NCBI GenBank assembly: GCA_050273025.1
Contig: CP158635.1
Location: 1,550,001 to 1,614,000 of the forward strand
Source of the DNA: Cenococcum geophilum
Taxonomy: Eukaryota
Length of the DNA stretch: 64,000 nt
Direction of reading: 5' to 3'
Shown here: positions 1 to 59,808 of the stretch, piece after piece
How positions within the stretch are numbered: position 1 is the first letter of the stretch
Layout: the number at the start of each line of letters is the position of its first letter
The notes under the pieces: model-generated
Database searches by the model: none
Told to the model about the DNA's origin: nothing
The model's input: only the letters and a program-made list of their open reading frames with translations
Translations under genes and position numbers: made by a program

Positions 1-2550
1 CCCCTGTCGATGCTTTTCCGGCGAACTAGAAGGGAGGCCAGTTTGAGGAGCAGGAGCTTACCGGCCCCTTTTTTGCCCTAACTTTTAAAGATCACTACTA
101 TCTAGATAGATGCTTCCTTAGTTCTTCCGGTAAAACTGAGATATATAACCTCTAGCTTATTAAAAATAACAAGACTGGCATTAGTAGGTGGTATATTAGG
201 TTTAATATTAGCCTAGTTATAAGACGCCTAAGAGTAAAGATGCTATTAACAAATCCTGTTTATATAATTGATGGTAACGGCCGCGAAGTAGTCCTTATAT
301 AGGGATTATCTATAGAAATCTCTGACCTAGTCACTATTGATCTTTAAACGGCTAGTTTCTGGGTATAGCGTCCGATCCTATCGCGTGAGGAAGAAGGTAG
401 TTGGTAAGAAAAAGCCGTAAAATTTACTAAAGAACTTCTAGACTCCCTACTAAGATAGCTCCTTAGTCTTAAGGCTAAGACAAACAAGAACTAAACCAGC
501 AATCTTAGATTTAGAAAAGATAATGCTGTATATATGCAGAAATGGGGATTAGAAAGGAAAGGAAGTCACGTATTAGTTATAAGGGTATAGGAATTAAAGT
601 CTGGAGTTATCTTTGCCGCTAAGGAGCCATACTTAAGGAACTACGACGATAATATAGTAAGAAAGGTGTGGGAAGAATTAAGAGCGGAATATAAGAATAT
701 AATTAAGCTTAGGGAGTATGTAAGTAAACGCCACCGAAACTATGTTGCCGTTAAGTGCTAATTAATTATCCTTTTTCTAGCTAAACTTAGTAAAAGTAAT
801 CGACTTAATATCACTAGAGAATTAGTAGCTACTATGGATGATTATGGAGTGAATTCTATATAGCCTTAACTTAATAAAACCTAACACTTACAATATTCCT
901 AACTTTATGCTTTAGGTCTATAACGGAATAGTTGCTATATATAATAAAGATTTTGCTTATTAGGACCTGAAGCTAGAGAATATCCTTATTAGAGTTAACG
1001 ACGATGGGCTTACTCCTAAGATCGCCAACTTTAGAGAATTGAAATTTAAGGCTTTAGGAAATATAATGACTATTACTAGCTTAGTATTATATATGGCCCC
1101 CAAACTCTATATAATAAACCTACCTTATTTTAAAGCTATTAATATATAGTCCTTTAGACTTATTATATTGGAACTTCTAACTAACTAGGAGCCTAACTTA
1201 GAGATATAGGGCTTCTACGGCCTGCTAAGTCCTAAACAGTATAATAACTGAGTTTATAACGTAATCCCTATTTATATAGCAAGTGCGCTAGAGACGTTTA
1301 GGTCTATATTAAAGGGACTATTATATAAGGAACCTAAGTAGAGATGGTCCGCTAAGGAATGCTAGAAATGGCTGCTAGGAATTGTTTTAATAAATATAAG
1401 CACGTAGAAAGGCACTAATAATAGCAAGAAGCGGCCTGTGTTAGTATCCAAGGACGACGGCTGTAGAAATATATGGAGTTAATACCCTACCTAATTAACA
1501 ATCTCTCTAGAGAGACGCAATCTCTAGGGAATACTTTTTAATACTTTTTATGTATTTAACGTAACTTCCGATGGAGTTTTAAAACTTGAAGGATTAGTAT
1601 ATATTAACAGAATTATCCCCTTACTCCTTATTCTGTGTCTTTATTATTCTAACTATTTTAGCCGCTCTAACTCTAAGTCTACAAAGTCTTTAAAATAGTT
1701 TGACGCTGGTAAAGAGGTTATTAAGCTATATTATGTGCTTTCCTAGAGGATAGAGCCGCTACTAAGTAGTCTTGTGCGTTTATATAAGGCTTAGCGTTAA
1801 TATAATGCTATAAAAGGAAGAGTAGATATAGGATAGCTTACTAAAAGCTACCTATATTACTCCCTAATAACCTTAGTCTTGTAGTTAATCTTAATAGCTA
1901 TATATTGCTTATCTAGCTCCCCTTCCTCATTAATTACATTGTCTTTTACCTAAGTAAAGGCCTAACCTAAGTTTTGGCATACCTCTAGAGTTTTAGGGCG
2001 TATTACTAGTAGGTCTCCCTTATTAAATAATATACAGCCTTATCCTTTACTTTTGTTTATAAAGATTAAAGTTATAAATAAAACCTTATAGGCCTAGATA
2101 GTACTATAGATAGCTAATAACGAGGCCCTCCTTATAGGCTTATGTGATGGAAAACTTAATAAAGAATTATTATAGGAGGAAATTGCTAGACATTTTATAG
2201 GTAGAACACTATAGGAATACAGGCGCTGTTATAAAATTCTAAGGCCTAAGCCTAAAAAGGAGGCTGTAAAGGAGAAACTATGGACAGCTGATAAAGAGAA
2301 ACGCCTCGTGGACATATATAAGGAAAAAGGCATGGCGTGGAATGACCTTAGAAGGTAATTCCCGGGAAGAATGTAACTCTTATATAGGAAGCATTATATA
2401 TATATATTTCCTAAAAAAGGAATAAGGCGGCTAGTAGGACCAGTAATGCTAAAGAAAAGGAGGTAGTAAAGTAGAAAGCAGCGCTAAAGAAAAAGAAGGC
2501 AATAAGGTATAGATAAGTAGCGCTAAATATAAGACCTAATAAGTGTTGCT
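1..2550 (+). pseudogene. RIP-inactivated FHA + Ser/Thr protein kinase + 2 Myb/SANT repeat gene (5' end outside window, 3' end approximate)
   Basis: Manual translation: FHA-like GISRWY (~178-195); RKGSHVLV..FAAKE (554-626). Intron 720-780 (gtaagt..gctaat..tag) restores (H)PNLV..MIMEW. Y*DLKLENIL at 958 (HRDLKPENIL), KIANFR (KIADFG), YMAPKL (YMAPEL), INI*SFR (DIWSFG). Same frame at 2107-2397: *IANNEALL..*EEIARHFIGRT and WTADKEKRLVD..GMAWNDLRR*FPGR..RKHY. Confidence 0.85.
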
Positions 2551-2769
2551 TAACGGCAGGAGTAAGGAATATAAATTGTGGCGGTTGTTCTTGCAGGTTT
2601 TATACTGTTATTAGGTTGGCTTCTAGCTTTAATGTTACATATAAGATAATTAGTGGGATAGTATCAGCTAAAAATAAGACTTTAACTAGAAATAGATTTC
2701 TAAGCAAAAGATCTACTACCTGAAATATAAGAATACGCCTAAGCTATTAGCCCCGTCCCTTTTATATAG

Positions 2770-4246
2770 CAGCTCTGGTCTTCACTTTAGTTACCTCCGT
2801 AGAAGAGTATATCTATTATTTAACTTTAGCGTGCTAGACGCGTTTTTTATAAGACTTAAGGGCATGTTTAGTATTTAAAAGCCCGCTTTTATAAACCTAG
2901 GTAGGTATTTAAGCTACTTTATATTCAAGCCCTAACTTAGTTATTCTTTCCTCTAGAATTTTATAGATCTCCCATTTATTATCTATGGTTATTTTATTAG
3001 CTTTATTATCTTTAGCGCGGAATCTCCGCAAAATAGACTATAAGCAATAGCAATAACGCTAGGCACGATGCTACGGGGTATAATACTTCGCAGTAAGCTC
3101 TAAGTTTAAAACGCCGCCCTAGTTGTCGTCGCCGCTATAATTATATTCGCTTAAGTTGCTAGTTTTATTACGCAGTAGTTTAATATTATAGAGAGAGGTA
3201 GGCCCCTAAAGCAAAGGGTTGGTGGGCCGTATAGTGGATATCGCTTAGTAATCGTTATAATTAACTTAGGAGTATTAAGAGTTAAGGCCGATAGGAGGCC
3301 AGGGGGCTAAGTTTTCGCGAGAGGTAGGCGGCTTTTGTTGTTTCTAGGGTTATAGATTACCGCCCTTACTACCCTTATTATACCCACTGCTATCTTTAGT
3401 AGAATTATTAGAATTATAATTAATAACGCTACTTTACTCTAGCTATTTAAGCTTCCGCTTCTTTAGTATTAAAAGTAATTTACCTCTAACATTTTCTTTC
3501 TTATAATCGCTCTCTTTCCTAGTAAGTAGACTAGCCTAGGGAATAGTTATAATATTAGTTCTCTTAACTAGACCGTTTATTTCATTAATGTTTTTTACTG
3601 TAAGTTTAATATGGTTATACACAGATGCGCTAAAGAGATCTTTAAACTCTTCTAAAGAAGGTAACTTCTTACCCTTATCGTCATTACTACAGTTATTTCT
3701 GTCACCTAATATTTATTAGGCAAAGCCATCGTATAGAGGAGAAGAGCATACCTAATTTATAAGGTGTTAGTTAATCGTCGGCTTTACCAGCTTTATTACT
3801 AGTATTATTATCGGCTCCGTCGCCTTTAGCTTCTAGGTTAAGGTCGGCTATACTATCTTTAATGGCTATTAGATCTACTGCTAGCCGTTAAATATATATG
3901 TTTATGGCTATTAGGAGAATAGGGAGAGAGTAGTAGGGATAATTACCTTAACTGCTTCCTCTAGCGACTTAACTAGATGTATCCCTATAGACATCTTCCT
4001 TATTATCCTTAAAATTTTTGTAATAATTATTTTTGTAATTATGGTTAGGGTCTGCAAGCGCTTTATTAGACGAAATCTCTAGACTAAGGCTTTATGTAGA
4101 ATAATACACCTCTAATTAGCCAAGCTTAATACGCCCTAGGGTTATTTCTTAGAGGGAAAAGGGGTATTTTATACTTTATCTAAGATATACTGCTCGTGCC
4201 TTTCTCGGAAGCTGTAACTATATAATATTAAGGTAAAGCTGTCCAT
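2770..4246 (-). pseudogene. RIP-inactivated ~490-codon gene with C-terminal chromodomain
   Basis: ATG at 4246 is in frame with KWEIYKILEERITKLGLEYKVA*IPT*VYKSGLLNTKHALKSYKKR at ~2977-2840. This matches the chromodomain pattern (W/Y)E(I/V)..IL..R......YxVxW..TW.....L.NA...L..Y after RIP reversal. End approximate. Confidence 0.7.
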
Positions 4247-4482
4247 TTTCCGGAGGGACTAGTATAGAACTTGCTGTTATTAAGCGAAATTTCTAAATAA
4301 AAATAAAGGGGTTAAGAAGGTGCTACTATTGCTGCTGCTATTATTATCGGAGTTATTATTATCTTATGCCTTTCTAATAACTTTAAGGGGGGATTACGCT
4401 AGGCTTTTAAATATAAGCCAGTTTCCTCTTCGCCACTAGCTCTTATCCGCGGCATCTATACTAGAATAACCCTACTAGCTCT

Positions 4483-5279
4483 ATAGCGAATTAAACCGTA
4501 TAATTTACACTCCATTAGTAATTGCCGTTTATAACGTATAAGGGTTTGCACGGGCTTAAGCTTTGTTACAAGATTAACGCCTATTAGGAAACTAGAATTA
4601 AGACCTAACTAACTAAGCTAGTATATTTAGCCTCTAATAGGGGCGTCGCACTAAGCCTCCTTATTGAGAAGGCTGGTGGCGAAGTACCTCCTTTACTCTT
4701 ATTTTTTAGAGTTAGGGCTAGTACTAACGTATCTGTTTTCTAACCCGATTATACTAGTAAACTAGATCTTCTGTACTAGATCCTCTACAAGACTATAGTT
4801 CTAAGCGGTGCCTAATATAGCCCTATGGCCATTTATAGCTATGCTACTAGGGATTAAAGTTATAGGTCGCGGTTATACTTTACGCCACTAAAACCGCCCT
4901 ATATATTAAAAGGCGGTTAGTAATAACACTTAGAGGATTAAGACTAATAGTATTCCTTAAATAAAGATATAATGGTGTGGTCCTACTAGGAGTTTAGCTA
5001 AAATTATATGGAGCAGCGGCTGGCTAAACTAAGCCTTATAAAGCAATACGAGGAGCTAGGGCGCCCGTAAGCGTCTCCGTTACCGTTTTGTGCTATTACT
5101 AACGTGGTAGTAAATGTAGATTTTATAGATAAGCTACTATAGGGTGTCGCCTTAAGTAAAGAATGGTATAGAAACTGGAGTGGCTGCGTAATCTAGCGAG
5201 GCTTCTAGCTGAAAATATATAAATGTACCGACTAATTAATATATATAATAGAGTAACACTAGGACGCCGGATGAGCTAA
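4483..5279 (+). pseudogene. Possible RIP-degraded hypothetical gene with one intron
   Basis: Frame interrupted only by RIP-type TAA/TAG stops; canonical fungal intron 5067-5110 (gtaagc..ctaac..tag); no recognisable domain; start inferred. Confidence 0.35.
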
Positions 5280-5974
5280 GGCGGCTTAAGGATCCTTAAC
5301 ATTAGCCCTTTATAGAATTGTCCCTATAGCACCAATTATAACATCTAACGGTTTGCGCTAATGTAGAGCGGTACCTCTAAGAACTAAAGGGACGATACAG
5401 GTCTAAGTTAAGTTTAGATTACTTAAGAAGAGTAATTTCTAGATAGAAGGGGTTGTTTAGGTAGTTTAGAGACTAGGTTTAAGTGGAGTAAATAGCTACA
5501 AATATACGGAAGGGTTATTTTTAGGCGAGAAGCCTAAAGGCAGTATAAGAGCGTTTATTAAATATCGGAGGATTAAACTATAGGTGTGATATTAGGAGAG
5601 GCCGAAGCATGCTTGCTCTACGCTATTATTAGTATAAGATATAAGATATTAGGAATACGAGGGTAGTGCAGCACTTGCATTAACGCTAAGTTAGTAAAAA
5701 ATGCCTTATAGTAGGGATTGTAATCTAATAAAGGTGGCGTGGCGTTAGGAAGTCTAGGAGAAAAAGGAGAATTAAAAGGTAAAATACAGAGAACGGGGGA
5801 AGGTTATCCTTTTATAGTCGACGTCGGATAAGGATACTGGATTACCGAAAGATTAGCTAAGAAACTTAATTTTCTATAGATATAAGATTTTCCGAGTCCC
5901 GGCTCAGACACCTCCATAACTGGTAGTTAAACCCTCCAGATTTGGAGGGCTCTAAGCCTACTAGATAAAGTTTA

Positions 5975-6105
5975 TAAGTAGAGCTTTATATAGAGCTTCG
6001 TGCAGAGCCTCTGTACGCAGAGCTTTATATAGAGCCTTGTGTAGAACCTTATGCAAAGCTTCGTGTAGAGCTTTGTGTGGAGCTTCATGCAGCGCTTTAT
6101 GCAGT
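5975..6105. repeat. Degenerate 12-bp tandem array (consensus AGAGCTTCGTGC)
   Basis: Units such as agagcttcgtgc and aaagcttcgtgt; reverse complement of the GCACGAAGCTCT array at 19295-19620. Confidence 0.85.
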
Positions 6106-6139
6106 TTTATAGTATTTTTGTTACATTTTTATTGCATTT

Positions 6140-6292
6140 TTATTGCAGCCAAAAATTAGGGTCTGCTTAAGTCGCTTAAGTCACAATTTTAGTAATTTAT
6201 ATAAAGTAGCCTGTAAATCGCTGCAAATCGCCGCAAATTGCTAAAATTGCGACTTAAGCGAGTTAAGCAGACCCTAATTTTCGGCTGTAATA
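6140..6292. repeat. Long inverted repeat / hairpin with ~60-bp arms
   Basis: ttattgcagccaaaaattagggtctgcttaagtcgcttaagtcacaattttagtaattt pairs with aaattgctaaaattgcgacttaagcgagttaagcagaccctaattttcggctgtaataa; mismatches are mostly RIP-type transitions. Confidence 0.9.
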
Positions 6293-6321
6293 ACGCGCCC
6301 AAAATTTTTTTTCCTGATGTA

Positions 6322-9300
6322 GGGGGTAGCCTAATGTATTTAAGTCTTAAGCGGAGGGCTACTAACACGTTAGGCGCTCTATTAAAACGGGCTATTAAGA
6401 TAAAAAAGATTGCTCTATATTATAGTAAGTCTATATAAGAGCACCAAGACTTCTATAATAGCTTAAAGCTAGCATTCCGCCTAGAGTGCGACGGCTTTAT
6501 AGATAAGGATACTAAAGTCGCGTTTACTATATAATATATAAAGGGGACCAACTAAACCCTTTAGCTATAGTATAAAGATAACTATTTAGATACGCAGTTT
6601 ACCTAAGAGGAGCTTATAAAATTCCTACTTAACTAGATTAAAAGTCCTATTAATTAAGAACTCTATATAGCCCTAACCTATATAAAGGTAATATAGCGAA
6701 CTAATTAACTAGTAAATAAGTTTACTGCTTACCTAACCTCCTTAAAAGCGCAAATTAATCCTCCTTATAATATAAAGTATTTAATAATATATCTGTTTGC
6801 GAAGCTGCGGCTAGAGCTATAGGTTGCTATTACCAACTATTAAGAATTCCCTTAAACTTAAGATTAGCTAGTTTCCCTAGCTACCCTATTAGAGGAAAAC
6901 TAGAAAAGCGCAAGCGCCCTATAAGGTAGAAGTAATAGGCGCGCCGTAAACTTAAATATAAAGACTACCTAGTTAGGTAACTTAGGGAAAGCGAACTCTA
7001 AAACTACCGCTAGCAACTTAATGGCGGGGCAAAGCAATACCGCTAGGGGCTTAACTTAGCCTAAAGGAAACTGCTTAAAATATGGGTAGCTAGGATATTG
7101 GTAGCAATAATGTAAAGAGTAGTAATAAAATTAACTACCACCTAGCAGTATAAACGCTACCTTTATACTAGGAAAAGATAAGCGCCCTTAAACCCCCTTA
7201 TAGCCGTAGGGCATAAGCTCCTACTAAATTATAAGGAAGCTATTACTATCTTAGGTAAAGTCCTCCTAAAGAAGACCTGGAAGGAGACCTTAGTAATGCT
7301 TAATATTGGTGCCGAAGTAAATATAGTTAACTAGCAATTTGCTATAGAGTATAACTTTAAAACACTAGATGTAGAGCTGCCTACCTACTCCTAGTTAAAT
7401 AAGACTTAGGTATATTACTATAAGGCCTATAAAGTACTACTAAGAATAAAGGACAGCTAGGGTAAGATTAGGGAAGTAACCCTTATCTGCTATAAAATAG
7501 CTAACATATCCCCTACTATTACCCTAGGTATACTAGGGTTAAAAAAGGCCTAACTTCTTATTAACTATAAGGCGAAGGCGTAGTAATAGAAGCTAGATAG
7601 CTTATCCCCATTACTATAAACCCCTAAGGGTTTCGCGGAGTCTCTCTAGATAGAATTTAGGGTCTTTACCCTATTAACTTCTAGAGTAATACCTAGTAAG
7701 TAAAATAACGGCAGCTTACTAGTCCTCCCCCCGCAGTTAAAGGAAGTTAGTAATATCTTCTCCTATAAGGAAGTAGGAAAGCTACCCTAATACTACTAGG
7801 GCGACTATACTATTGACCTAAAAGAGGGACAGGAGGCCCTATATAGGCCGCTCTATAACCTCTTAGCTAAGGAGCTAAAAGTCCTAAGGGAGTATTTAGA
7901 TAACGCCTTAGCTAAAGGCTAGATCTAACTAAGTACTAGTCCTATAGGGGCACCTATTCTCTTTATACCTAAAAAGGATAGGAAGCTGCGGCTCTATATA
8001 GACTATAAAGGCCTTAACAAGGTAACGATTAAGAATCGTCTCGCACTACTATTAATTAGTAAGACCTTAGACCGCTTAGTAGGTTCTAAAATCTTTACTA
8101 AGCTAGACCTAACGCATGCGTATTACCGCCTTCATATCCATTATGGCGATAAGTAGAAGACGGCGTTCTGTACGCGCTACGGCCACTTTAAGTACTTAGT
8201 TTTGCCTTTTAGGCTAACTAATAGACTAGCAACCTTTTAGGGCTATATTAATCAGGCCTTATTAGGACTAGTAGATGTCTTCTATATAGTCTACCTTAAT
8301 AATATTCTAATTTTCTCTAAAAATCCAGAGGAACATTAGCGCCACGTAGTAGAAGTACTGCGTAGGTTATAATAATACCAACTATATACAAACCTTAAGA
8401 AGTGCAAGTTTAGCGTATAAAAAATTAAGTTCCTAGGATATATTATTAGCCCTAAAGGTATAGTAATAGATCCTAGCCGGGTAGAAGCCATTACTAAGTA
8501 GGAGAGCCCTTAATCCTATAGAGATATCTAGGTCTTCCTAGGTTTTGCTAACTTCTATTATTGGTTTATTTATAAATACTCTACTATTGCAAAGCCTATT
8601 ACTAATCTCCTAAAAGGAGTAAAGAACGGCCGTAAAGCTAGGCCTTTTAATTAGCTAGAGGAGGCGGAGTAGGCAATATACCGGCTCTACAACGCCTTTA
8701 TAACGGCGCCGCTCCTATAATACTACACGCTAAGCCTACTAACTTAGTTAGAGACGGATGCCTTAATATAAGGCCTAGCAGTAATTATATTACAGCTATT
8801 TAAAGACGGCCTTTAGTATCTAATAGCCTTTTAGTCTAGGAAGCTTTTACTAGTAGAGCGTAACTATAAAACCTATAATTAAGAGCTACTAGCTATTATA
8901 GAGGCTTTTAAGCATTAGAGACACTATATTAAGGGGCTATTAAGCCGCCTAGAAGTACTCTTAGATTATAATAATCTAAAGGGTTTTATAAAAGTAAAAG
9001 CCCTTAATAGACGGCAAGCCAGATAGGCTATAACCCTAGCTGCCTATAACTTTATTATTAAGCATGGGTCGGGAAAAACAAACCCCGTAGACGCGTTGTT
9101 AAGGCAACCCCTAGGCGTAGGGGGTTTACTAGAAGAAGACACTATACTACTACTGCTCTAAAGGACTTTAGAAATATAGGGCCACCAACTTAAGGTAAAA
9201 GTCTTATTAGGTATATAGGAAAGCAAGCCTTTTATAAAGGTATCGCTTTTATAGCTATAAGCCGGCGACCTAATAGAGGTACGCCTAGGCAATATAGTAT

Positions 9301-10900
9301 TATGGTTTAACTAGGCAACCTACACGTATACCGTTAAGTAGCGTATAATAAGAACCCAAGTTAGAGTAGTAAGCACTTAAGAGAGTGCCTATAAGTCTAG
9401 TACGGAAATAGTTATTAAGCTTATTAAAGGACTTTAAACTATAGATAACTTTATGCTGTAAAAGTACAGCGACAGCGTAGATACAGCAAGACGCCGTTAA
9501 CGCGCCTACTTAAAGCTAGTGTGGCAGTTTAATTCTAATAGACTACTTTATCACCATGGGAGGCTATATATGCCCCTAGACCTAGCAGTTTATACAGAAC
9601 TCCTATAGATCTACCACAATAATGCCCTAGCTAGGTACTTTAGTAAGAAAAAGACTCTAGATCTACTTACGCGTAAGTACTACTAGCCTAGTATAAATGC
9701 GGACATTATAAGCTATATCTTTACCTATAATCTATGCCAGCGTATATATACGCCTTAATATCGCCCTTATAGCGAGCTCTAAGCGCTACTTTACCTAGAT
9801 TAGCCATAGTAGGAGATTATAATAGACTTTATTATAGGCCTCCCACCTAGCAAATAAGGTAAGAAGGTATATAACGCAATATATATAATAGTTAACCGCT
9901 ATACTAAGATAGCCTTATATCTGCCTATAGTAAAAACTATTACTATAACCGAACTCGCGGATCTCTTCCTTAATAAAGTAGTACGCCGTTTTGGAGCCCC
10001 TAGGGGGATTATATCTAATTAAGGCAGTATCTTCACTAGTAAGTTCTAGTTAGAGCTATGCTTTACTATAAAGATTAAACGTAGGCTAAGTACGGCCTTT
10101 TACCTATAAATAGATAGGTAAATAGAACACCAGAACTAAACCTTAGAGTATTACCTCCGTATATTCTATAATAAAAAGTAGAGTAACTAGGTAGGCCTCT
10201 TATTACTAGCTAAATTCGCCTATAATAATACTAAATATAGCATAATAGGTATAAGCCCATTCTATACCTACTATAGGTTTTACCTACGTCTAGAATATAA
10301 GGTTAAGGCGGATAATAGTAGTTCTATTCTAGCCGCCTCTAAGAGAATTAAAAGAATATCCCTTAAATATAAAGCGCTAATAAAACGCTAGGAGTACGCC
10401 GCTAAGGTATAGGCGAAATACTATAATCGTTATTACTAACTATAGGTATATAAAGTAGGGGATCTAGTCTTGCTATTAACTAAAAACCTTAAACTAAAAA
10501 GGCTAAGTAAGAAACTTATAGCATGCTTTATTAGACCTTTTAGTATAGCTAAACCAGTTAGAAAGTAAGTATACTAACTATATCTACTTACGTCTTACCG
10601 TATCTACCCAGTGTTCTATATTAGCTTGCTAGAGCTATATAAATAATATAAGGGCACTACTAGAGACCCTCTATTAGGGCCTATTAAGCTAGATAATTAA
10701 GAGGACTAAGAGGACTAATATGAGGTAAAAGAAGTATATAGAAGGAAGGGATATAACCAGACCCTATAATACCTAGTTAAGTAAAAAGGCTAGCTAAAAG
10801 AGTATAACAAATGGGTCCTAATAGAGGACATTAATAAGGACGCAAAGGAGACGTATAATAGTTACTTTACCCTAAGGAGTAAATAGAAAAGAAAGTAGGC
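6322..10900 (+). pseudogene. gag-pol relic of gypsy A (protease, RT, RNase H, integrase, chromodomain)
   Basis: NIGAEVN protease (~7302); YGPLYNL (~7842); YLNNILIFS = YLDDILIFS (~8291); ETDA (8751); LSTAF..TDGQ-like (~10086); chromodomain YEVKEV..YLVK*KG (~10720-10820). Confidence 0.9.
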
Positions 10901-11547
10901 GGGAGAATAAAAAACTTTTAATTATAACTAGAATTGCGCCTTACTAGCGGGGCAATAATAGAACGACGGCGGAGTAATAGTAGTACGCTAATAGAAATAT
11001 AGATACTCTATAGCTCTAACAAATCCTCCCTCTTCTCCCCTCCTTCTTCTTCCTCCTCCTCTCCCTCCTTATCCTCCTCCTCCCCCTTCTCCTTATCCTC
11101 CTCCCCCTTATCCTCCTCCTTATCCCTTATAATGGGAGGCATATTAGCCTATAGGTACTATTAGTATACGCTATAACGGCAAAATACCTGCGCTACGATA
11201 CGTACTAAAGCGCGTATTATATTAAGAATTCCTTTAAAAGTATAACGGATGGCTTATAATTCCTACACTTAGAGTAAGGGAAAGTCTTCGCCCTTTAGGT
11301 GTTAGCGGAGACTATACTTAGCGCTAGTACGTACTAAGGCCTTAACATCCTTTGTAAAGGACTTCTGGATGGCAGCAACGCAAGCGTTAAGGTTAGCCGT
11401 ATCTCCACCAGCAACCCACTAGCGCTTAGCCCTATTAATAAGGGTAAGTAGCTTATTTAGGCGGCTATAGAAGGCCTTAGGGACCTAGTCTGTTAGCTAT
11501 TAGAACTTAAACTAACGTACTTAGACTTACTAGTTAGTACGACTTAT

Positions 11548-11972
11548 TATTACGGACGCTTTAAGTACGATATTATAACTACTTGGAGAAGAGACGGAAG
11601 AAGCTAGTTGGTTGATTTAGGCACGGTCTAGGATGGAGCCGATAGAACTATATGACGAGGAATAGTAACCGAGGTCATATAATGTGCTACGTATTAAACG
11701 AGAGGAACAAGAGGAACTTACGTACCTTATGTATAAGACGTACATTACGTATAAGAAGGATTTTATAGGAGTATAGTTGTGTATTTAAGGACCCTTAGTC
11801 CCTACCTAGATAGTTCCTTCCTTATAGTGATTCTTAGAATATAATTAGAGTTAATCTATTAGGCAACCACTTCACCAGTTGTTATTATATTATTAACTTT
11901 TATACTTATATTTCCTACACACCTAGCCTAATAATAAGCCCACCGTAGTTCCTACTATAAGGTTCCGTTATA
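11548..11972 (+). repeat. 5' LTR of gypsy B
   Basis: Direct repeat of 21586-22010; TG..CA ends RIPed to TA..TA. Confidence 0.95.
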
Positions 11973-12016
11973 TAATTACTACCTAGTTATAGTATTAATA
12001 TAAGAAGTCGAACAAT

Positions 12017-15000
12017 ATGCTACTAAAAGCAGCTACTATGACGCCATTAACGGTAGCAACTACATTAAGGTTAGGTAACGACACCAGTATAGCAAACACT
12101 AACTCACAGCAACCTATAACGGTTGGACAATTATAAGAGATAGTTAACTAGTTGACAGAAAATAATATAACGTTAGAAAATAGGATTAATGGGATAGGCG
12201 TAGTAAAGGTTAAGTTACTATTAATCAAAAGATACTTAGGAGAGAGATTAAAGCTTAAAGGATTCCTTATGTAGATGCACTTTAAGGTAGCACAGGAAGG
12301 AGTAAAGCTGGCAACACCTATAGATTAAATAGCCTATGCAGGACTATTCTTAACAGGAAGAGCACTTAAATAGTTTAAGCCTTACCTAATAGAAATCTAG
12401 GTAAACGGGATAATAACTATAAACCAAGAGGTACGGTTTATGTTCTTAAGCTAAAATAGATTCGTTAAGCGACTTATATAAATGTTTGGAGACCCAGAGG
12501 CAGTAACTACGGCAAAAAGAAAAGTCCAAAACATTACGTAACGAACCTTAGTAATTAAGTATATAACATAGTTCCAGACGTTAGTAATATAAGTTAAGTG
12601 AAATAACAGGGCGCTTATAGCATAGTATAAACAGGGACTTAAGGCTAAAGTCTAGGACGTAATTATTCTAATAGAAGATGCGGACACCCTAAGGGAGTTA
12701 ATAGATTAGGCAATTAAGATTAACAATTAGATCTACCAAAGGGAACAGGCCAAGAGAGGTTAGGATAGAATTCTATAGTCGTATAAGGCGTAGAGCACGT
12801 AACGACAAAAGCCAAGTTAAAAACTATAGTATGGCGCAGAGCTAATGGACCTAAGTAGTACTAGAGAAGCCTATAAGAGATAGAGTAAGAAACTATGGAA
12901 ACCTAGAGGACAGGGATTAAGTAATTAAAGGTTTAAGGAGCAGAGGCCAAATTAGGGATCTTAGCAGCAGAAGATATTCAGGCGGACTCCACAGCAAGAA
13001 AAATGGTTTAAAGAAGGAGCTTATATAAATTATAGAAAACAGGGTTATTACGTTAGAGACTATAAAAGTAGGTAGAGTTACTATATAGTAAAAGGTACGA
13101 GACTAGTAGACGATATATACGTATAGAGGAATAATAATATACTGCGAGGAACAAAAGAATGTTTAATTAGAAGTTTTGCATTTTATTACAATAACGTATA
13201 CTAAATTTATAAGGATGCTAAGTACGGCGTAAGCTATTAGCTATAGGAGCTAGCACCTACAGGATACAGAGGAACTAATAAACCAGTTCGCAGATCGGAT
13301 ATTAAGGACGATAAATTTAACGTAGGCGAAATATTTCGTAATAATAAGGAAATAAAAGCAGTTTACTAGGAACACGCAGCTATTGGAGATATTATACTAG
13401 AGGTAAAGGATAATTCTACTACGGAATAGGGAACATTAGTAGGGATTAAGACCCCACTAGATATAATGTCTATCGCTTTACGAGACGTAAAAGAAGTAGG
13501 ATAGTAAACTACTTTAGCACTTAATAAAGGCAAAAGGCCAAAGACTTAAGATTCTTATAATAAGATATAAGACAACTAAGATTCTTAAGACAAGATAAGG
13601 CAAGCTTAAGGACCCACAACGGACAAAAACCGATAGAGTAGAGTAGTAGCTTAGTTTAGTAATATACAAATAAGCTCGGGACGGAGGTTCCCATAAACAC
13701 AAGATTCTTAAGACAAGATAAGTAAGATTTAAGACTCTTAAGATAAGATAAGAATACTAAGTAAGCCTAGTTGAACTAAGGCTAGAGCTAAGCTTAAGTT
13801 AGAAGCAAGCTTAGGATCAAGGATCTAAAGGGGCTAAGAATTTGGAGTATAAATTAGGATACCCATAGATAAAAGGCAAGGAGCTTCTTTATAGATTAGA
13901 GAATCTGCGGCACAAATAGTAACTAAACTAGGAGATAGATACATGGACCTAGAGGACTTACTAATAGAACATAGTATTCAGACTAAAGATTAAAAGGTTA
14001 ATATAAAGATTAAGAAGTAAGAGAACTTTAAGGATTAAAGCGCAAAACGCAAACCAAAGGAAACCATAGAAGAATTTAGATAGAGAATTATCGTATAGCA
14101 AGAACAGAAACTAGATAAGAGATCTAGTATATTAGGACGTATAAGGGATAGAGCGCTAGTATAAAGAATCACTAATAGGCCTAGGGTAGGCACACTAAGA
14201 GCTAAGTGGCTAACTAAACTAGAAGATAAAGAGGATCTAGAAATCCTAACTAGGTTCGAAGAATAACATATAAAGGGCTGTTATAATATAGTAATAAGAA
14301 GATACTTCCTTACGGATAAGCCGTATATACTCTAGCAGCTATACTAAAAGTAGTATAGGCAGAGGCACAATAATAAGTGGGAAGATTTTTATATATGGTT
14401 GGATAAAAGAGTTATCTAAGACCACCCAATTATAGAAAAGGCCATAACACATATTAAAGGAGCCTTAATTATAACGTTAAAGGATCTAAAGGAATAATTA
14501 GAGGACTAGAAAAGTAAGAGGCGTATTTTAGTACCTACGAATAAAGTTATAACGTTTAGATTAGCACAATAAAGGTTTAAACTTAAGGATAAGGATAAGC
14601 TAAGAGTTAACCTAAAGCACCCAGCACACTATACGTTATTATAGATTGCGTACGTAGATAATATATATAAGATGCACAAGAATCCAAAAGAAAAGAATTA
14701 GAAATACCCTATAAGAATATACTAGATAATAGACGAGCGATAGTATAAAAATGCCAAATATATATATAGATAATGGCATCCAGTAGAGGATTAAAAGGAA
14801 GGAAGCTTAGTACTTTAACTAGGAAGATTTCTTATAGAAGAATACTTAGACGGATAATAGTGGTGGGAATACCTAAAGAACATATATCTATAGTATATTA
14901 AAGATAAAAAGCAAACTAGATATTAGCTAAAGAGTAAGCTAAGTGCATAAGGATTAAGCAGCTAATAGTTAGGAAAAGTAGAGGCCTACAGAACTAGAGG

Positions 15001-18000
15001 GAGCTAGTAGTAGAGCCTTAGACCCTTAAAGGAATTTAAGGATAACACCTAAATTTATAAGTTAAATAGTAAGATTAACAGTTTAAAGCGCTAATAGATA
15101 GTGGAGTAACGCGGAACCATATCTTACTAGCAGCAGTTAAGAGAATAGGGCTACTTTATAGATAGAAGGAGTAACCTTACCTATTAATTATAATTTTAGG
15201 AGATCTAATAGCCTACGGAGGAGGGATTATTAATCTTAAAATAGGACCTATTTAGATAACTATTAAAGGAAAATAAATTAAGATGTCTTTTAATATCCTA
15301 CCATTAGGACGAGATGAGGCAGTATTAGGCATACCTTAGTTACAGGAATATAATTTAAAGATTAATTAGATTATAGGTCAAGTTAATATTAAAGATACTT
15401 AATACCGCAAGATGCAATAATAAGCTAAGTTAGTATAGTACTAAGTAGAAGCAACCTATAAAGAAACAAAGAAAGGACTAAGTTATATACTAAAAAGATA
15501 CCATAAGTACGGCAAGAAACTATAGTTACCGGAAAGTAAAAAGCTATTAGAGTATATAGTATAGGACTATAAAATAGAATTAGAACCAGAAATAAGTTTA
15601 AAGTTCTTTCCAATCTATAAGCTTACTAAAGAAAAAGGTAGAGTATTAAAAGAGTTTATCTAAAAAAACTTATAAAAGGGATATATTAGACTATCGCAGT
15701 CATTAGCGGGTTATCCAGTACTGTTTATACTAAAAAAGAATGGTAAACTAAGGCTATATATTAACTATAAACAGTTAAACAGCATTACTAGGAAGGATAG
15801 ATATCCTTTACCCTTAATTAGCAAAATCTAAGATAGGATAGGTAACGCGTAAATCTTTACAAAGATAAATCTAAGATAGGCGTACTATTAGATTAGAATT
15901 AAGAAAGGCAACAAATAAAAGGCAGCCTTTAGGTTAAAGGAAGGACTATATAAACTATTAGTTATACAATTTAGGCTTATAAACGCACTAGCAATGTTTT
16001 AAAAGTGTATTAACAATATATTAGGAGAACACTTAAATAAATTTGTTATAGTATACCTTAACAATATTATTATCTATTTAATAACTAAGGAAGAATATAG
16101 GGAACACATTAAATGGGTCTTAAAGAAACTATAAGAAGAACAGATACTAGTAGCAATTAAGAAATGCGAGTTCTTTACTAGGAAGACCAATTTCGTTAGA
16201 TTTATTATTAAACTAGGCTAACTTAGCATAGATCTAAAAAAGATTAAGGCTATAGTAAATTAGTAAGAACTAGAGAACGTTATATAATTAAGATCGTTTT
16301 TAGGGTTTTATAATTACTGTAGAAGGTTTATAGCACAGTGGTTAAAGGATATTAAGCCATTTACACAATTAATAAAGAAAGAAGAACTATAGGCATAGGG
16401 AGAGGAATAAAGAGAACTCTTTAAAAAAGTTAAGGAGTTGTTTACCTAGGAGCTAGTTCTTAAGATCTATTAACTAGGACTAGAGATAGTTATAGAAACG
16501 GATACATTAGACTATATACTAGGGGTATACTTTATATAGAAATATTAAAATGGATGGCACCTAGTGGTATACTATAGTTAGAAGATAATACTACTAGAGT
16601 TAAACTATAATATCTATAATAAGGAGTTATTAGGTATAGTTACAGTATTAAAGAAATAGAAAGCATTCTTATAAGGTATAGAGAAACTATTTATAGTTAA
16701 GACGGATTATAAAAACCTAATAGGATTCCTAATAATAAAGGAACTTAACTAGAAATAGGTTAGATAGGTAGAGATACTTATAGAATACTATTTTAAAATT
16801 TAGTATACTAAGGGTATAGATAATATACGAGTAGATACTCTAAGTTATAAGGCTAAACTATAGAACGATAAAAAGCCATTAGGAGCTTTACTGCGAAAAG
16901 ACATAGATAGATTAATTAGGTATAATTATCCAAAAATTATAGTAACTTAGGAAGAACTAGAAAGAGTTTATAAGTTACCAGAAAGCTTTTAGGTATAAAG
17001 AATTCTAAAAGTATAGCTAGAAGATCTATAGACGGATATATACAGAAACCAAGAAATAAAGTACATCCTAAAAAGCATAGCAGAGTAGTTTATAGAGGAC
17101 TTCTATAAGGGATTAACTTAAGGACATAATAGAGCTATAGGCTTAGTGTTAAGACTTTAGGAGGAGTATATTATTAACAGAATCTAAAGGATAGCTAGAA
17201 AGGTTACTAAAGAGTATTTAGATTATTAAAGAAATAAACTAATAAGGTATAAGCTATATAAAGGGCTATAACCTGTTAAAACACTAGAGAGACTATAGGA
17301 GGTTATATTATAGGACTTTATTATTAAGTTACTAAAGTTAAGAAATCCTATTACCGGACAAGATTATAACGTAATCTTAGTAATAGTAAATAAGCTTATA
17401 AAGTAGGGATACTTTATAGTATATATAGAAGAAATCTTAGCAGAAGATATTGCTAGAATCTATATTAAAGAAGTGTTTATAAGATATAGAGCACTAAGTA
17501 AAATTATATTAGATAGAGATCTAAGATTCATAGTAGTATTCTAGAAAGTATTTTTAGTGGAGTAAGGAGTTTAAGCAGTAACTTCTACTATATATTATCT
17601 ATAAACAGACAGTTAAACGGAAAGATTAAATTAGACGCTAGAACAATATCTAAGATATTATATTAATTATGCATAGAATAATTAGGTATTACTATTACCA
17701 GTTATATAGTTTATATATAATATAACACCTTAAAAAGAAATAGGCACATTACTATTTAAAGCGAATTATGGATATAAGCTAAGAATATTATTATTACTAT
17801 AGCAAGCAAAGAAAACAAGTAGCATAGCTAAAGAAAAAATAAAGACATTAATAAATCTTTATATAGACCTTATAGAATTAGTAAAGAAAGTATAAGAGAG
17901 AATAAAAAAGTACTATAACGCTAAGAGATCTAAGGAACTAGATCTTAAGGAGGGAGATAAAGTATAGCTACTACACAAAAATTTTAAAAGTTAATAACTA

Positions 18001-18380
18001 AGTAAGAAGTTAGACTACGTTAGACTAGGACCTTTTAAAATTACGCAGAGAATTTTACCAGTTACGTTTAAGTTAAACCTACTAGCTAAAATAAAGATCT
18101 ACCCTATATAATATATTGCAATATTAGAGCTAGTATATAGGAATATTAAGTCACCGGTTTATAAAGTAGATATATATAAAGGATAAAAGGAAGATAAATA
18201 GTAAGTTTTAAAGATCGTTAGTTATAAGGACATTAATAATAAAATATAGTATAAGGTTAAGTGAATAGGCTATACTAAGACTACCTAGGAGCTACTAAAA
18301 AATTTAAAGAATGCTATAAAAAAGGTACAGGAATATTGGAAGAAATTAGGTTAGGCAGTATTAAAAAAAAAGGATTACTA
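12017..18380 (+). pseudogene. gag (long, with CCHC) and pol relic of gypsy B
   Basis: ATG 12017; RIPed CCHC knuckle ~13021-13062; DSGVTRNH protease ~15098; YLNNIIIY RT ~16052; ETD RNase H ~16495; integrase ~17100-17800; chromodomain ~18190-18340. Confidence 0.9.
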
Positions 18381-18867
18381 AAGAATAAGTTACCTAAGGG
18401 GGACCTAGGAAGAGCAGTTGCCGAACTACTTAAATCTATTTCCTTCTCTGTTAGAAGAGAATCCGTTCTTTTATTACTAAGTTCCTATAAACCTTATTCT
18501 ATAAGCTTCTACTCCTTAAAACAAACCTTCTTATAAACCTTTTTAAGATAAAGTAGATAAGCAGACGCCGCGATTTAAGCATTTAGGGCCTTCTGTTCAG
18601 CATTATAAGAATATTTTAACTTCGCAAGGGCTTAAGACAGTTTACTATCTAGCCGCGTAGCAGTAGATTAAACACAAGACCCTAAGATAAATTAATTAGG
18701 GAACTAGACAACTATTAAGAGTAATAGGTCGCGTATATTTAGTATTAGAGGTAGAGCGAACGTCATAGGATAAACAAATATTTGCTTTAGTGTACTCTAA
18801 GTAAGAGGATAGTTATTGTAAAGATGGGTTCGCCAATGTACATTAGCATTTTGTTGGGGTGCCAAGA

Positions 18868-19245
18868 TCCTGGAGGCCTCCTGACAGGATTTTGATTTTC
18901 CTGGAGGTCCTGATCGTCCTGACAGGCTCCTGACAGGCTCCTGACAGGCTCCTGGTAGGATTTTGATTTTCCTGATCGTCCTGAACGTCCTGAACGTCCT
19001 GAACGTCCTGATGTCCTGAACGTCCTGAACGTCCTGATCGTCCTGGTCGTCCTGACAGGCTCCTGACAGGCTCCTGGCAGGATTTTAATTTTCCTGATTA
19101 TCCTGAACGTCCTAAACGTCCTGATGTCCTAAACGTCCTGAACGTCTTGATCGTCCTGGTCGTCCTGATAGGCTCCTGACAGGACCCTACTATCCTGATG
19201 CGCTCCTGATAGGAAACTAGTATTTCCTGATCGTCCTGTTAGGAT
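18868..19245. repeat. Left subterminal array of CCTGACAGG / CCTGAACGT / CCTGATCGT units
   Basis: Many 9-11 bp units beginning TCCTGA, arranged in higher-order ~120-bp blocks. Confidence 0.9.
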
Positions 19246-19294
19246 ACCCCCCCAAAGTAACACCCTATGCACACCCCTTAAGCAACACTACTGG

Positions 19295-19620
19295 GGCTCT
19301 GCACGAGGCTCTATATACATAAAGCTCTGCGCGAAGCTCTGCTCGGAGCTCTACGCGAAGCTTGCACGAAGCTCTGCACGAAGCTCTACACGAAGCTTGT
19401 ACGAAGCTCTGCACGAAGCTCTACACCGTGACGGGGCTCTATACGAAGCTCTACACGAAGCTCTGTATGAAGCTCTACACGAAGCTCTACACGAAGCTCT
19501 ATACGAAGCTCTACACGAAGCTCTACACGAAGCTCTACGTATAAAGGCTCTGTACGAGGCTCTGCATGAGGCTCTGCGCGAAGCTCTGCGTACGGAGGCT
19601 TTACACGAAGCCCCGCATGA
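19295..19620. repeat. 12-bp tandem array (GCACGAAGCTCT)n
   Basis: Directly visible; explains the repetitive ORFs at 19351-19747. Confidence 0.95.
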
Positions 19621-19769
19621 CACACATTACTATCGGGTCCCCGCTATATTCCCGATAGCCCTATACGTGCCTCTGCCAAGCTACCCCCTTTATAGCCACC
19701 TTATTTTTTACCCTTCCTTATATCCTCCCTACCTTAGGAGGCACTAGAACGGCAGCTAGTAGAGGACTA

Positions 19770-19926
19770 TTGCTAGAACTAGACGACCGTTGCCAGAACT
19801 AGACGATCGTCGCTAGAACTAAACGACCGTCGCCAGAACCAGACGACCGTTGCCAGAATTAGATAACCGTCCTAGAGCCAGATAACCGTTACCAGAACCA
19901 GACGACCGTTACCAGAACTAGACGAT
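19770..19926. repeat. 21-bp tandem array (GCCAGAACCAGACGACCGTC/TT-like)
   Basis: About seven visible degenerate units. Confidence 0.9.
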
Positions 19927-19934
19927 GACCTTTT

Positions 19935-20725
19935 AAACAACTAGCCAGCGAATACCACGAATGATTTAATTGATCGATCGATTGAATTAAACCAGAGCTT
20001 TGATATTAGCTTATTACTGAATTGAATCAAGGCCTCCTAGGGAGGCACCCTAGACGACTACCGTTCGAATGTATAGCTAGCGAATGGCCGTAGAGAACGA
20101 TCTGAATCGATTAGAGCCTTCGATCGGGCCGACCCCTCCCCCGAATTGAATTAGATACTGATATAGGCAGACAGGCAGGCAGGCAGGCAGGCAGGTAGGT
20201 AGGCAGATAGGTAGGTAGGTAGGTAGGTAGGAGACGACCGTCGCTAGAACCAGACGACAACCGTTCGAACGACCAGCCAGCAAATACCACAAACGATTCA
20301 ATTAATTAATTGATCGAATTGAACCAGAGCTTCGATATTGGCCCGTTACCGAATCGAATTAAGGCCTCCTAGGGAGGCACCCCAGACGACCACCGTTTGA
20401 ATGTATAGCCAGCAAACGGCCATAGAGAACGATTCGAATTAATATAATTAATTGTAATCGAATCAAGCAGAGCCTTCGATCGGGCCGACCTCTGCCCCAA
20501 ATTACAGATACAGACAGGTAGGCATAGACAAGTAGGCACGATAGGTAGGCACAGACAGGTAGGCATAGACAGGTAGGCACCGACAGACAGGTATAGATAG
20601 GTAGGATGGTCGGACAGGTAGGACAGGTAGGACAGGCAGGACAGGCAGGATAGGTAGGACAGGCAGGACAGGCAAGCAGGCAGGCAGGCAGGCAGGCAGG
20701 TAGGCAGGCAGGCAGGCAGGCACTA
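19935..20725. repeat. Internal duplication (~19935-20230 and ~20265-20725), each copy ending in (GGCA/GGTA)n microsatellite
   Basis: aaccagagctt..ggcctcctagggaggcacc..agagaacga..agagccttcgatcgggccgacc occurs twice. Confidence 0.9.
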
Positions 20726-21049
20726 GGCCTAGTTAGGAAATTAGTACACGGCCGGTGGATCATCGGGAACACCGCCAATTGACGATTTGGAACCTCTGCG
20801 AGAGCCTTCCCCCTCGTCTCCTCGATCGATCGATCGATCGATCAATTGCTTGACGCCTGAGTAGACACAGACATAGGGGTAGGTAGGAAGGATTGATTTG
20901 GATTATTTAGATAGCTTAAAGCATCCTATATATAGAATAGGGCCTAAAATTAAACCAATTTTTATATTTTAACTGCTATAAATACTAGAGTATTAATATA
21001 CCTTATTTTAAAATCTAGAATTTTGTTATTTTAATTATTATCCTAATTG

Positions 21050-21330
21050 TCCTAATTATCCTAATTGTACTGATGGTACTGATGGTCCTGATGGTCCTGA
21101 TGGTCCTGACAGTACTGATGGTCCTGGAGGTCCTGGAGGTCCTGGAGATCCTGGAGGTCCTGGAGGTCCTGGAGATCCTGGAGGTCCTGGAGGTCCTAGA
21201 GGTCCGTGTGGTCTGTGTGGTCCGGGCGACCTCCTGACAGGTTCTTGACAGGAAGCCGAGTGTGAGTGTCTTTTAAAGCTCCTGACAGCCCTGACAGGAG
21301 CTGTCAGGAACCTGTTAGTACTATCAGGAG
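21050..21330. repeat. Right subterminal arrays (CCTGATGGT, CCTGGAGGT, CCTGACAGG)
   Basis: 9-bp tandem units; CCTGACAG motifs in both orientations near the terminus. Confidence 0.9.
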
Positions 21331-21585
21331 GCATAAACATTTTCCTGATGTAATATAGACTAACTTCTCTTTTAAACAACGAGAACACGGAGATAGTATA
21401 ATCTCACTAAGAGATAATATCGCAGTAATAGTGTGAGCACGACGTTAGGCGTGTAAAGAAGAAATTGCTTTAGGTATAATAAGTAATAATATTAACTAAA
21501 TTAATTAGACGGATATTACACCTCTAGTAAATAACTTAGAGATATTTTAAATCTTTAAGGACAAAAATAAAGAGGAGGGAGATAG

Positions 21586-22010
21586 TGTTACGGACGCTTT
21601 AAGTACAATATTATAACTACTTAGAGAAGAAACAGAAGAAGCTAGTTGGTTAATTTAGGCACGGTCTAGGATAGAGTTAATAGAACTATATAATGAGGAA
21701 TAGTAACTAAGGTTATATAATATACTACGTATTAAATAAGAGGAACGAGAGGAACTTACGTACCTTATGTATAAGACGTATATTACGTATAAGAAGGATT
21801 TTATAGGAGTACAGTTGTGTATTTAAGGACCCTTAGTCCCTACCTAGATAGTTCCTTCTTTATAGTAATTCTTAGAATATAATTAGAGTTAATCTGTTAG
21901 GTAACCACTCCACCAGTTATTATTACGTTGTTGACTTTTATACTTGCATTTCCTATACACCTAGCCCAATAACAAGCCCACCGTAGTTCCTGCTACAAGG
22001 TTCCGTTACA
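21586..22010 (+). repeat. 3' LTR of gypsy B
   Basis: tgttacgg...ccgttaca, followed by TSD CTTAT. Confidence 0.95.
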
Positions 22011-22523
22011 CTTATTTAGTCATTAGTAGTACCCGTAATTGCGGTTAGCCTACTTACTATAGGTAGCCCGCCTAGCGGTAGCTACGCGCTTAGTATAGCG
22101 GAGGCAAATTAGTTTAAGTAAGGCTAGGGGAGCACCTTGCGAATAATAAGGAAGCTTAGACGGCGTTTAGTAGGGTTAGCGATAGCTATAAGCTAGTATA
22201 AAGAATACTTACGGAAAACTCGCCAATAGGCAGACCGGCGGCGCTACGCTTACAATTTATAATTAATTAGAAATTAGGAAGAAGGCGAGTTATAGGCTAA
22301 ATAAATTAAAATGGAATTAAAAGGGAAATTTAATATCCTACCTAGGTAGGAACTCCTACCTTTATAGATCTCTATAAGGTCCTATTATTACATTATCCTA
22401 TTATTACATTATCTAATTCGCTTAAATTTGTTAAAAACTTTTTATTTAGAGAAGGATAATAATAGCACTCCTATTATATAATAGCGTCGGCTAAGGACAG
22501 CCGCTTAAAAAGGGGGGGGCAAT

Positions 22524-59717: not shown

Positions 59718-59808
59718 ATTAGCTAGGTTGAAGAAATACTAAAATTCCGTATAACCTATTATTAAAGTTATTACTTAAAATACTACTTACCTTATAAATA
59801 TATATATA

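Follow-up and report, generated by a model that had tools for sequence, protein, structure and literature searches.

The window analysed here is a stretch of 64,000 nucleotides of Cenococcum geophilum DNA (contig CP158635.1, positions 1,550,001 to 1,614,000 of the forward strand), and its first 6.3 kb hold mutated genes that appear to travel with a large transposon. The best explanation, to which we give an even chance of being correct, is a nest of insertions. A Ty3/gypsy retrotransposon (gypsy A) would hold a small element, here called X, with its right end at 6319, and X would in turn hold a big gene-bearing element that ends near 5927. Both would form one family with a complete 2.5-kb element further along the window, with ends of the form CATYAGSA...TSCTRATG and a duplicated TA at the target site. 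New evidence, independent of the end sequence at 6319 from which an initial annotation, made from the letters alone, had argued, supports the view that the gene-carrying repeat is a large transposon and a relative of the 2.5-kb element.

The whole window is an AT-rich repeat nest, with a GC content of 0.20-0.50 in 1-kb bins and strong signatures of repeat-induced point mutation (RIP). The composite RIP index is 1.13 at 1-5927, 1.75 in gypsy A and 1.18 in a second retrotransposon, gypsy B, and it is 0.05 at 5930-6319 and 0.22 in the 2.5-kb element. The following two features define that element.

18841-21350, forward strand: complete, non-autonomous 2.5-kb element with 9-, 11-, 12-, 14- and 20-mer arrays; it begins CATTAGCA... 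and ends ...TCCTGATG, with TA at 18839-18840 and at 21351-21352.

26417-26419, reverse strand: empty site of the 2.5-kb element, uninterrupted in the second copy of gypsy B.

The 2.5-kb element is a true insertion, as the initial annotation had stated in calling it demonstrably mobile. Gypsy B occurs as two inverted copies (11545-22012 and 25760-33678) that are 85% identical over 7.3 kb, with the 2.5-kb element in copy 1 only. Copy 1 runs from 11556 to 18840 and resumes from 21350 to 22012, and the inverted copy 2 (33670-25760) is unbroken at 26417-26419. With slashes at the junctions, the filled site reads GCCAATGTA/CATTAGC...CCTGATG/TAATATAG and the empty site GCCAACGTAATATAA. The duplication is TA at a minimum and ATGTA at most; one filled/empty pair leaves 2 to 5 bp indistinguishable. 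Because ATG recurs in the repeated 9-mer TCCTGATGG within the element and in an internal TTTCCTGATG at a related locus (L004, see below), the element was taken to end in ...CTGATG and the duplication to be TA. The extreme ends are CATTAG and CATCAG (CATTAG... and ...CTGATG). By eye, the terminal inverted repeat agrees at about 14 of 21-23 positions (CATTAGCATTTTGTTGGGGTGCC versus CATCAGGAAAATGTTTATGCC), of which some 6 nt are exact, and arrays of the 9-mer TCCTGANNG lie at both ends. With a GC content of 0.49, the element is nearly RIP-free within a strongly mutated gypsy copy and is therefore probably a late insertion. This suggests that the family was active after most RIP, so that an intact autonomous copy may still exist.

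The link to the start of the window was first drawn from a shared end. Only two exact copies of TTTTCCTGATG exist in the window (6309-6319 and 21340-21350), each followed by TA, as had been read from the letters. The resulting 13-mer TTTTCCTGATGTA (6309-6321 and 21340-21352) is observed twice against 0.005 expected from base composition, and any match appeared in 2 of 300 block shuffles. Likeness between the two ends is confined to the last 11 nt, and the subterminal sequences differ. A RIP-tolerant version of the end pattern finds 7 left-type and 8 right-type matches in the window versus about 3.8 and 3.6 in shuffles; beyond the known ends, none of these pair into an element. To the right of the shared end lies gypsy A.

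6320-6321, no strand: putative target-site TA beside X in gypsy A, by comparison with the site proven for the 2.5-kb element.

6322-11544, forward strand: gypsy A, of the Ty3/gypsy type, without a 5' long terminal repeat (LTR) and cut at 6321/6322; Pfam matches RVT_1 (2.8e-23), RT_RNaseH (4e-20), Integrase_H2C2 (5.9e-7), SH3_Tf2-1 (1.1e-9) and Chromo (0.05).

Gypsy A has the Ty3/gypsy order of reverse transcriptase, RNase H and integrase with a chromodomain, the chromodomain match being weak. The initial annotation had the gene-rich segment abut gypsy gag with no LTR. The second part of this stands, the 3'-terminal 760 bp of gypsy A having no copy in 1-6500. As to the first, Pfam gave no gag match and a BLASTP comparison with the gag of gypsy B is not significant; that 6322 falls within gag or shortly ahead of it is judged from position and from a CCHC (zinc-knuckle) remnant seen by eye at 7072.

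To the left lies the gene-bearing repeat. Its copy number was estimated at 80% likeness in contigs from four sequencing runs (X1, X5, X7 and X8, covering organism A and, with three samples, organism B). Root metagenomes are among the sequencing runs in which the stretch is present. Relatives were obtained by scanning metagenome contigs with P0002, a 525-aa protein annotated 'kinase-like protein [Cenococcum geophilum]', which yielded seven loci, L001 to L007. The big element and its right-hand parts are as follows.

1-5927, forward strand: right-hand part (about 5.9 kb) of one RIP-degraded copy of the big element, which runs off the left edge of the window (BLASTN matches to L001-L007; multicopy in four runs; composite RIP index 1.13).

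4704-5927, forward strand: right arm of the big element, diverged, collinear with the right arms in L003 and L004.

5886-5929, forward strand: putative right terminus of the big element, placed by eye to within about 8 nt either way, with GATTTTCCGAG at 5886-5896 (L004 counterpart CATTTCCTGATG), ACCTCCATAAC / CTGGTAGT at 5910-5927 and TA at 5928-5929.

The segment is multicopy. According to BLASTN, window 15-4703 corresponds to L003 10016-14719 with 85.6% identity, window 1-1779 and 2277-4703 to L004, and window 1-2497 to L002 (90.6%), with shorter matches in L001, L005, L006 and L007. At identities of 83-91%, 1-4703 is thus collinear with L002-L004 and, over part of its length, also with L001 and L005-L007. 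The stretch 1-5670 is covered by 2-25 distinct contigs per listed variable site in the four runs. Differences are mostly of the RIP type, with 560 transitions and 37 transversions between the window and L003, and 3374 transitions among 3594 variable places in run X1. The copies in L002-L007 are RIP-like in composition, the exception being L001 (GC about 0.5). The summed depth in X1 is 1,695-5,853 over 1-5670, 24,602-39,222 in gypsy A and 155,281 in the bin with the 12-mer array described below. Heavy RIP had been taken initially as a sign of multicopy status, and single-copy cargo genes were to count against a transposon; the genes prove to be the multicopy load of a repeat.

The repeat also extends well beyond the window. 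Upstream of the kinase gene, at least 8 kb are common to L002 and L004, and part of this also to L005 (common sequence 7-10 kb upstream in L002, L004 and L005). The shared upstream region contains an ABC-transporter ATPase pseudogene (ABC_tran, E 4.6e-19). On the ruler of L004, the unit reaches from 199 to about 17150, which after subtraction of a nested 1.9-kb insertion amounts to about 15 kb or more. This insertion, at L004 6727-8605, is another repeat that is also found in L005 from 1877 (by eye), at a different place, and in part in L003. Its junction in L004 carries a CTAA/CTAG or TAA/TAG repeat, for which reason it is regarded as another transposon family, and it gave no Pfam match.

One reading of these data involves no mobile unit at all: a segmental duplication in a RIP-mutated nest, with the boundary and the end motifs due to chance or to later breakpoints. 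It is consistent with left boundaries that differ among copies, since the likeness of L007 and L001 starts at the counterpart of L004 8915, that of L005 at 8844 and that of others further left, and with copies that are mosaics with replaced segments. The kinase of L001, lying in non-RIP DNA with unrelated sequence upstream, points the same way. However, a repeat found on 2-25 contigs per listed site in four runs, keeping the same order over about 15 kb or more in two to three copies, and with the 10-mer TTTCCTGATG plus a TSCTRATG-like motif at most 45 nt from a common breakpoint, is poorly explained in this manner, and we regard a plain duplication as quite unlikely. If the end motifs were coincidental, the region would be an ordinary nest of degraded repeats.

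Some of the loci show further details. L001 carries, at 1-3322, a nearly intact kinase gene that is 92% identical to P0002 and lies in unrelated, unmutated non-RIP DNA. Its likeness to the repeat begins where that of L007 does, about 27 nt before AGAGGAATAAACC, and the DNA upstream is unrelated between the two. The kinase and about 1.1 kb of promoter may be a separately duplicated or captured unit. In L007, an open 111-aa reading frame on the reverse strand (12357-12692) resembles, by eye, the N-terminus of a PiggyBac-type transposase and is located exactly where the likeness to the big repeat stops. At a distance of 6 kb from its mutated kinase copy, the same locus has an intact 570-aa open reading frame (ORF; 18415-20127, reverse strand) within non-RIP DNA, which indicates that this copy adjoins ordinary genes.

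The right end of the big element was located from the other copies. L003 and L004 run 1.55 kb past the counterpart of window 4703, after which their flanks are unrelated. Their likeness lasts up to ...TATACCTCCTATTAT / ...TATATCTGCTAATAT; past this point each differs from the other and from the window. The shared arm end reads ...CATTTCCTGATGCAGTTCCACTC...TATACCTCCTATTAT, with ...TATTTCCTAATATAGTTCTACTCTATATCTGCTAATAT as the RIP-mutated form in L003; the shared arm as a whole reaches ...CATTTCCTGATG-N31-CCTCCTATTAT (...TCTGCTAATAT in L003). An nhmmer profile of both arms matches the window in order at 4793-4864 (E 5e-9) and 5597-5776 (E 6e-8). By this profile and by a MAFFT alignment, window 4704-5776 is a diverged, collinear form of the arm, and the end of the other copies corresponds to window ~5920-5929. 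Because three copies carry three unrelated sequences beyond this point, it is regarded as a true end.

This end is also what ties the big repeat to the 2.5-kb element. The end of L003, TGCTAATA followed by TA, is the same as the reverse complement of the left end of the 2.5-kb element (TGCTAATG followed by TA) but for one RIP-type G>A, a resemblance that owes nothing to the sequence at 6319. In L004, the 10-mer TTTCCTGATG lies about 35 nt inside the end of the big element. TA likewise follows the ends at 6319 and at L003 16258, and in L004 its presence depends on the register chosen. Exact end-like 10-mers were also seen outside the big repeat, TACATTAGCA at L005 5046 and TGCTAATGTA at L007 13373; their partner ends were not found at these loci, and they may be further members or chance.

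The window copy therefore most likely ends at ~5920-5929 rather than at 6319, and the last 390 bp before gypsy A are described separately.

5930-6319, forward strand: element X, a right-end remnant of about 390 bp, with a hairpin at 5932-5949, a 12-mer array at 5978-6101, an 11-mer array at 6096-6147, a palindrome with 59-nt arms at 6140-6198 and 6235-6293, and TTTTCCTGATG at 6309-6319.

No match to 5930-6319 was found in L001-L007. The segment is also little mutated, with CpA+TpG counts per 100 nt of 15, 11 and 8 at 6001-6300 versus 0-8 in the other bins of 5201-6800. Part of a multicopy unit should be mutated along with the unit, so 5930-6319 is interpreted as the right end of a separate element, most likely a smaller member of the same family, to which the end at 6319 would belong. 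The 12-mer array of the initial annotation is indeed present a few hundred bp from the end, as in the 2.5-kb element, albeit inverted: the array at 5978-6101, as delimited by Tandem Repeats Finder, is 75-80% identical over 106-120 bp to the array at 19322-19611 (best E 2e-21) in opposite orientation. Followed inward from 6319, it is consequently the mirror image of the array that lies close to the left end of the 2.5-kb element. Bin 5671-6300 reaches up to about 90 times the depth of the neighbouring bins of 1-5670 in X1, and about 30-80 times in X5, X7 and X8, which marks the AAGCTCTRCAYR 12-mer as an abundant satellite-like motif.

Alternatively, a single element might run through to 6319, itself inserted at a TA of gypsy A. 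The shorter L003 and L004 would then reflect an internal pseudo-end, or the big element and the right end of X would move as a composite. This is closest to what was claimed initially, namely that the genes are cargo of an element of more than 6.3 kb that ends at 6319. The 6319 end is identical over 11 nt plus TA to a proven mobile end, the TA at 5921-5922 is uncertain under an ACCTCC register, L003 and L004 are one lineage, and subterminal copies of the end motif make alternative ends plausible. Against it, 5930-6319 has no counterpart in the seven loci, the RIP level drops sharply there and three copies diverge from one another at the same point. We consider it unlikely. What remains of the initial claim is a large, multicopy, RIP-mutated repeat with a defined right end like that of the 2.5-kb element; the position of that end does not, as the other copies stop about 390 bp earlier, and 5930-6319 is unmatched and little RIP-mutated.

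Several observations count against the nest of insertions proposed at the outset. The score of the last 180 nt of the arm is reached by 9 and 5 of 300 shuffles, so that the mapping of the terminus onto the window is weak, and the better by-eye register (ACCTCC...) places TG, not TA, after the window end. L003 and L004 share the nested insertion and hence represent one lineage at two locations. The 12-mer array, being hugely abundant in four runs, is less specific than it looks. No recognisable left end of X is present at 5930, and the left end of the big element, with any inverted-repeat partner and duplication, lies beyond the sequence covered; the boundaries at L004 8915, 8844, 8605 and 7019 showed no CATYAG end. 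Among the matches listed from contigs of the four runs, no loose ends or bridging contigs occur at 5927 or 6321. Finally, no transposase, Captain or Rep/Hel domain was detected in the stretches scanned with Pfam (window 1-6321, L004 1-10202 and L005 1861-8762, in six frames), a type of scan whose sensitivity is lowered by RIP; the two stretches of L004 and L005 gave ABC_tran as their sole match.

Three pseudogenes were identified in the part of the big element within the window.

1-1520, forward strand: protein kinase pseudogene with many RIP-type stops, an intron at ~717-780 and its first ~38 codons upstream of the window; Pfam Pkinase E 2.5e-11.

2080-2430, forward strand: Myb/SANT-like remnant, two repeats by eye; Pfam Myb_DNA-bind_6 E 0.0037, 17.8 bits, below the cutoff of 22.9.

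2837-3994, reverse strand: low-complexity protein pseudogene with a C-terminal chromodomain-like motif by eye at 2948-2974; no Pfam match.

Besides the sub-cutoff Myb match, the kinase is the only six-frame Pfam hit in window 1-6321, with stops read as the letter X. The window starts at about residue 39 of this kinase. A search of 5.8 billion proteins, used for both the kinase and the Myb region, returned P0001, an intact 514-aa homologue with 66% identity, of which P0002 is a cluster mate. The 525 aa of P0002 map to 1636 nt in L004 and L007, corresponding to one intron of about 61 nt. P0001, which comes from Logan, is spliced over the short intron at window 717-780 and may stem from an assembled transcript or from eukaryotic gene calling. 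An FHA-like N-terminus, a by-eye impression, was dropped, as Pfam gave no support on P0001 at E<=1. Full-length kinase homologues with 38-51% identity are spread patchily over Sordariomycetes and Eurotiomycetes, a distribution that is typical of accessory genes.

The initial annotation had treated the kinase and the Myb domain as one gene. Since the intact kinase homologue of 525 aa stops near window 1520, they are instead two genes. No intact homologue of the Myb region was found among the 5.8 billion proteins, the sole match being P0025, another mutated kinase-tail ORF. For the chromodomain ORF, a search of 1.84 billion representatives gave 22 matches at E<=1e-3, each of them a short fragment or incomplete, and no full-length intact relative was among them; P0008 is a chromodomain-like fragment that is less mutated.

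The remainder of the window contains further repeats. A Ty1/copia-like element lies at 43987-49485; its 236-bp LTRs agree at 96% and have TG...CA ends, its GC content is 0.42 and its composite index 0.21. Its light RIP and the integrase and reverse transcriptase motifs that are readable by eye indicate that it is probably a recent insertion. Within 33846-64000, repeat pairs are formed by 38760-42955 and 59802-64000 (87%, direct), by 37849-38760 and 53636-52711 (inverted), by 49797-50791 and 52729-51729 (inverted), and by 33846-34154 with both 50486-50794 and 52034-51734.

Taken together, the following course of events can be proposed. X would have inserted at a TA in the 5' part of gypsy A and would then itself have received the big element. 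The big element carries host-like genes, namely the ABC-transporter fragment far upstream (in other copies), the kinase with promoter and intron, the Myb-like gene and the chromodomain gene. Members of the family would end in 5'-CATYAGSA...TSCTRATG-3', with copies of the motif and tandem arrays just inside and TA duplicated. In what is probably a cut-and-paste process, a trans-acting transposase would recognise the terminal 8-mer together with the subterminal repeats and cleave beside the TA, and non-coding members would likewise be moved by transposase supplied in trans.

More broadly, and only tentatively, the family could be a non-Starship, TA-duplicating family with terminal inverted repeats (TIRs) in an ectomycorrhizal ascomycete, whose largest members, of about 15 kb or more, took up whole host genes and reached tens of copies, while small minisatellite-filled relatives were active after the main RIP waves: a giant cargo-carrying DDE-type element of unassigned superfamily. 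To our knowledge, cargo-carrying mobile DNA in fungi has so far consisted almost wholly of Starships and gene-capturing Helitrons. If true, a multicopy TIR-type element with complete host-like genes would offer a third route to duplicate and move genes. This would bear especially on C. geophilum, given that 94% of the transposable-element content of its reference genome is RIP-affected, as stated in an excerpt of PMC12910237. Narrow word searches of the literature found no description of a TA-duplicating CATYAG...CTRATG family, which does not show that none exists.

Finally, the family was compared with known transposon classes. A DDE enzyme is favoured, and a Starship and a Helitron2-like origin were also considered. 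TcMar-Fot1 and TcMar-Pogo elements are reported in C. geophilum in the excerpt of PMC12910237. The present family resembles Tc1/mariner-pogo in the TA duplicated at the one proven insertion (where 2-5 bp are indistinguishable), in its terminal inverted repeat, short and imperfect here, and in non-coding derivatives moved in trans. No DD(E/D) transposase domain was found in the scanned stretches. The long tandem arrays near the ends, and a member that bears genes and measures about 15 kb or more, would be uncommon in Tc1/mariner-pogo.

The CACTA/CMC-like affinity suggested initially is not borne out by the termini. Subterminal direct repeats with the end motif, large size and CA...TG ends are indeed shared with this group (En/Spm, Mirage, Chapaev), in which duplications of 2-3 bp occur. 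However, the ends CATTAG and CATCAG (CATYAG) are not CACTA or CACTG, RIP transitions cannot interconvert them, and no transposase was found in the scanned stretches. PIF/Harbinger was rejected: its 3-bp TWA duplication is ruled out at the 2.5-kb element, where the left junction reads GTA/CATTAG and a TAA/TTA duplication is therefore impossible. Of the Myb-like second ORF and DDE_Tnp_4 transposase of that group, the former has a match below the Pfam cutoff and the latter was not found in the scanned stretches.

A degraded Starship would have a DUF3435 tyrosine recombinase (Captain) at the unseen 5' end, with the TA as its short direct repeat. In addition to the size of about 15 kb or more, the host-like cargo and the patchy kinase homologues, Starships have direct repeats of 2-6 bp and occasional TIRs (passages of PMC11162782), and in a subset a MYB/SANT gene lies close to the edge that faces away from the Captain (passages of PMC12256816). 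Yet Starships are described as low-copy (PMC11162782, same passages), whereas this repeat is multicopy in four runs, and the Myb remnant is directed to the end, not inward. Moreover, no DUF3435 was found in any scanned stretch, the 5' end lying beyond these, and small non-coding relatives with the same ends, such as the 2.5-kb element, suit a TIR family better. A Starship is accordingly judged very unlikely.

A canonical Helitron was rejected as well, as insertion at A/T would make the element begin with TG, and both flanks carry TA (up to ATGTA). To a Helitron2-like rolling-circle element with captured gene pieces we assign a slight probability. Its insertion between T and A would duplicate nothing, leaving TA/ATGTA as microhomology with its 3' end, and the empty/filled pair fits 0 to 5 duplicated bases. 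The capture of genes complete with intron and promoter, the palindromes near the 3' end of X and the end-like motif ~35 nt short of the big element's terminus, as in an asymmetric TIR (whose 5' end recurs 20-50 bp inside the 3' end), agree with it. According to an excerpt of PMC5148889, fungal non-canonical Helitrons measure 9-11 kb and end in CTCCTGT. In contrast to Helitron2/Helentron-like elements, the 2.5-kb element has symmetric ends, with an inverted repeat at both extremes (by eye), and neither a 5' TC nor CTRR/T at an A/T site; no Rep/helicase domain was found in the scanned stretches.

The cargo itself is reminiscent of gene-capturing elements. In plants, these are the Pack-MULE and Pack-CACTA elements. 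The fungal counterpart, of Helitron2 type, is described in the same excerpt of PMC5148889. As in these systems, the big element carries host-like genes with intron and promoter, and an intact paralogue lies outside the repeat (L001, P0002), while its end structure and TA repeat set it apart from canonical Helitrons.

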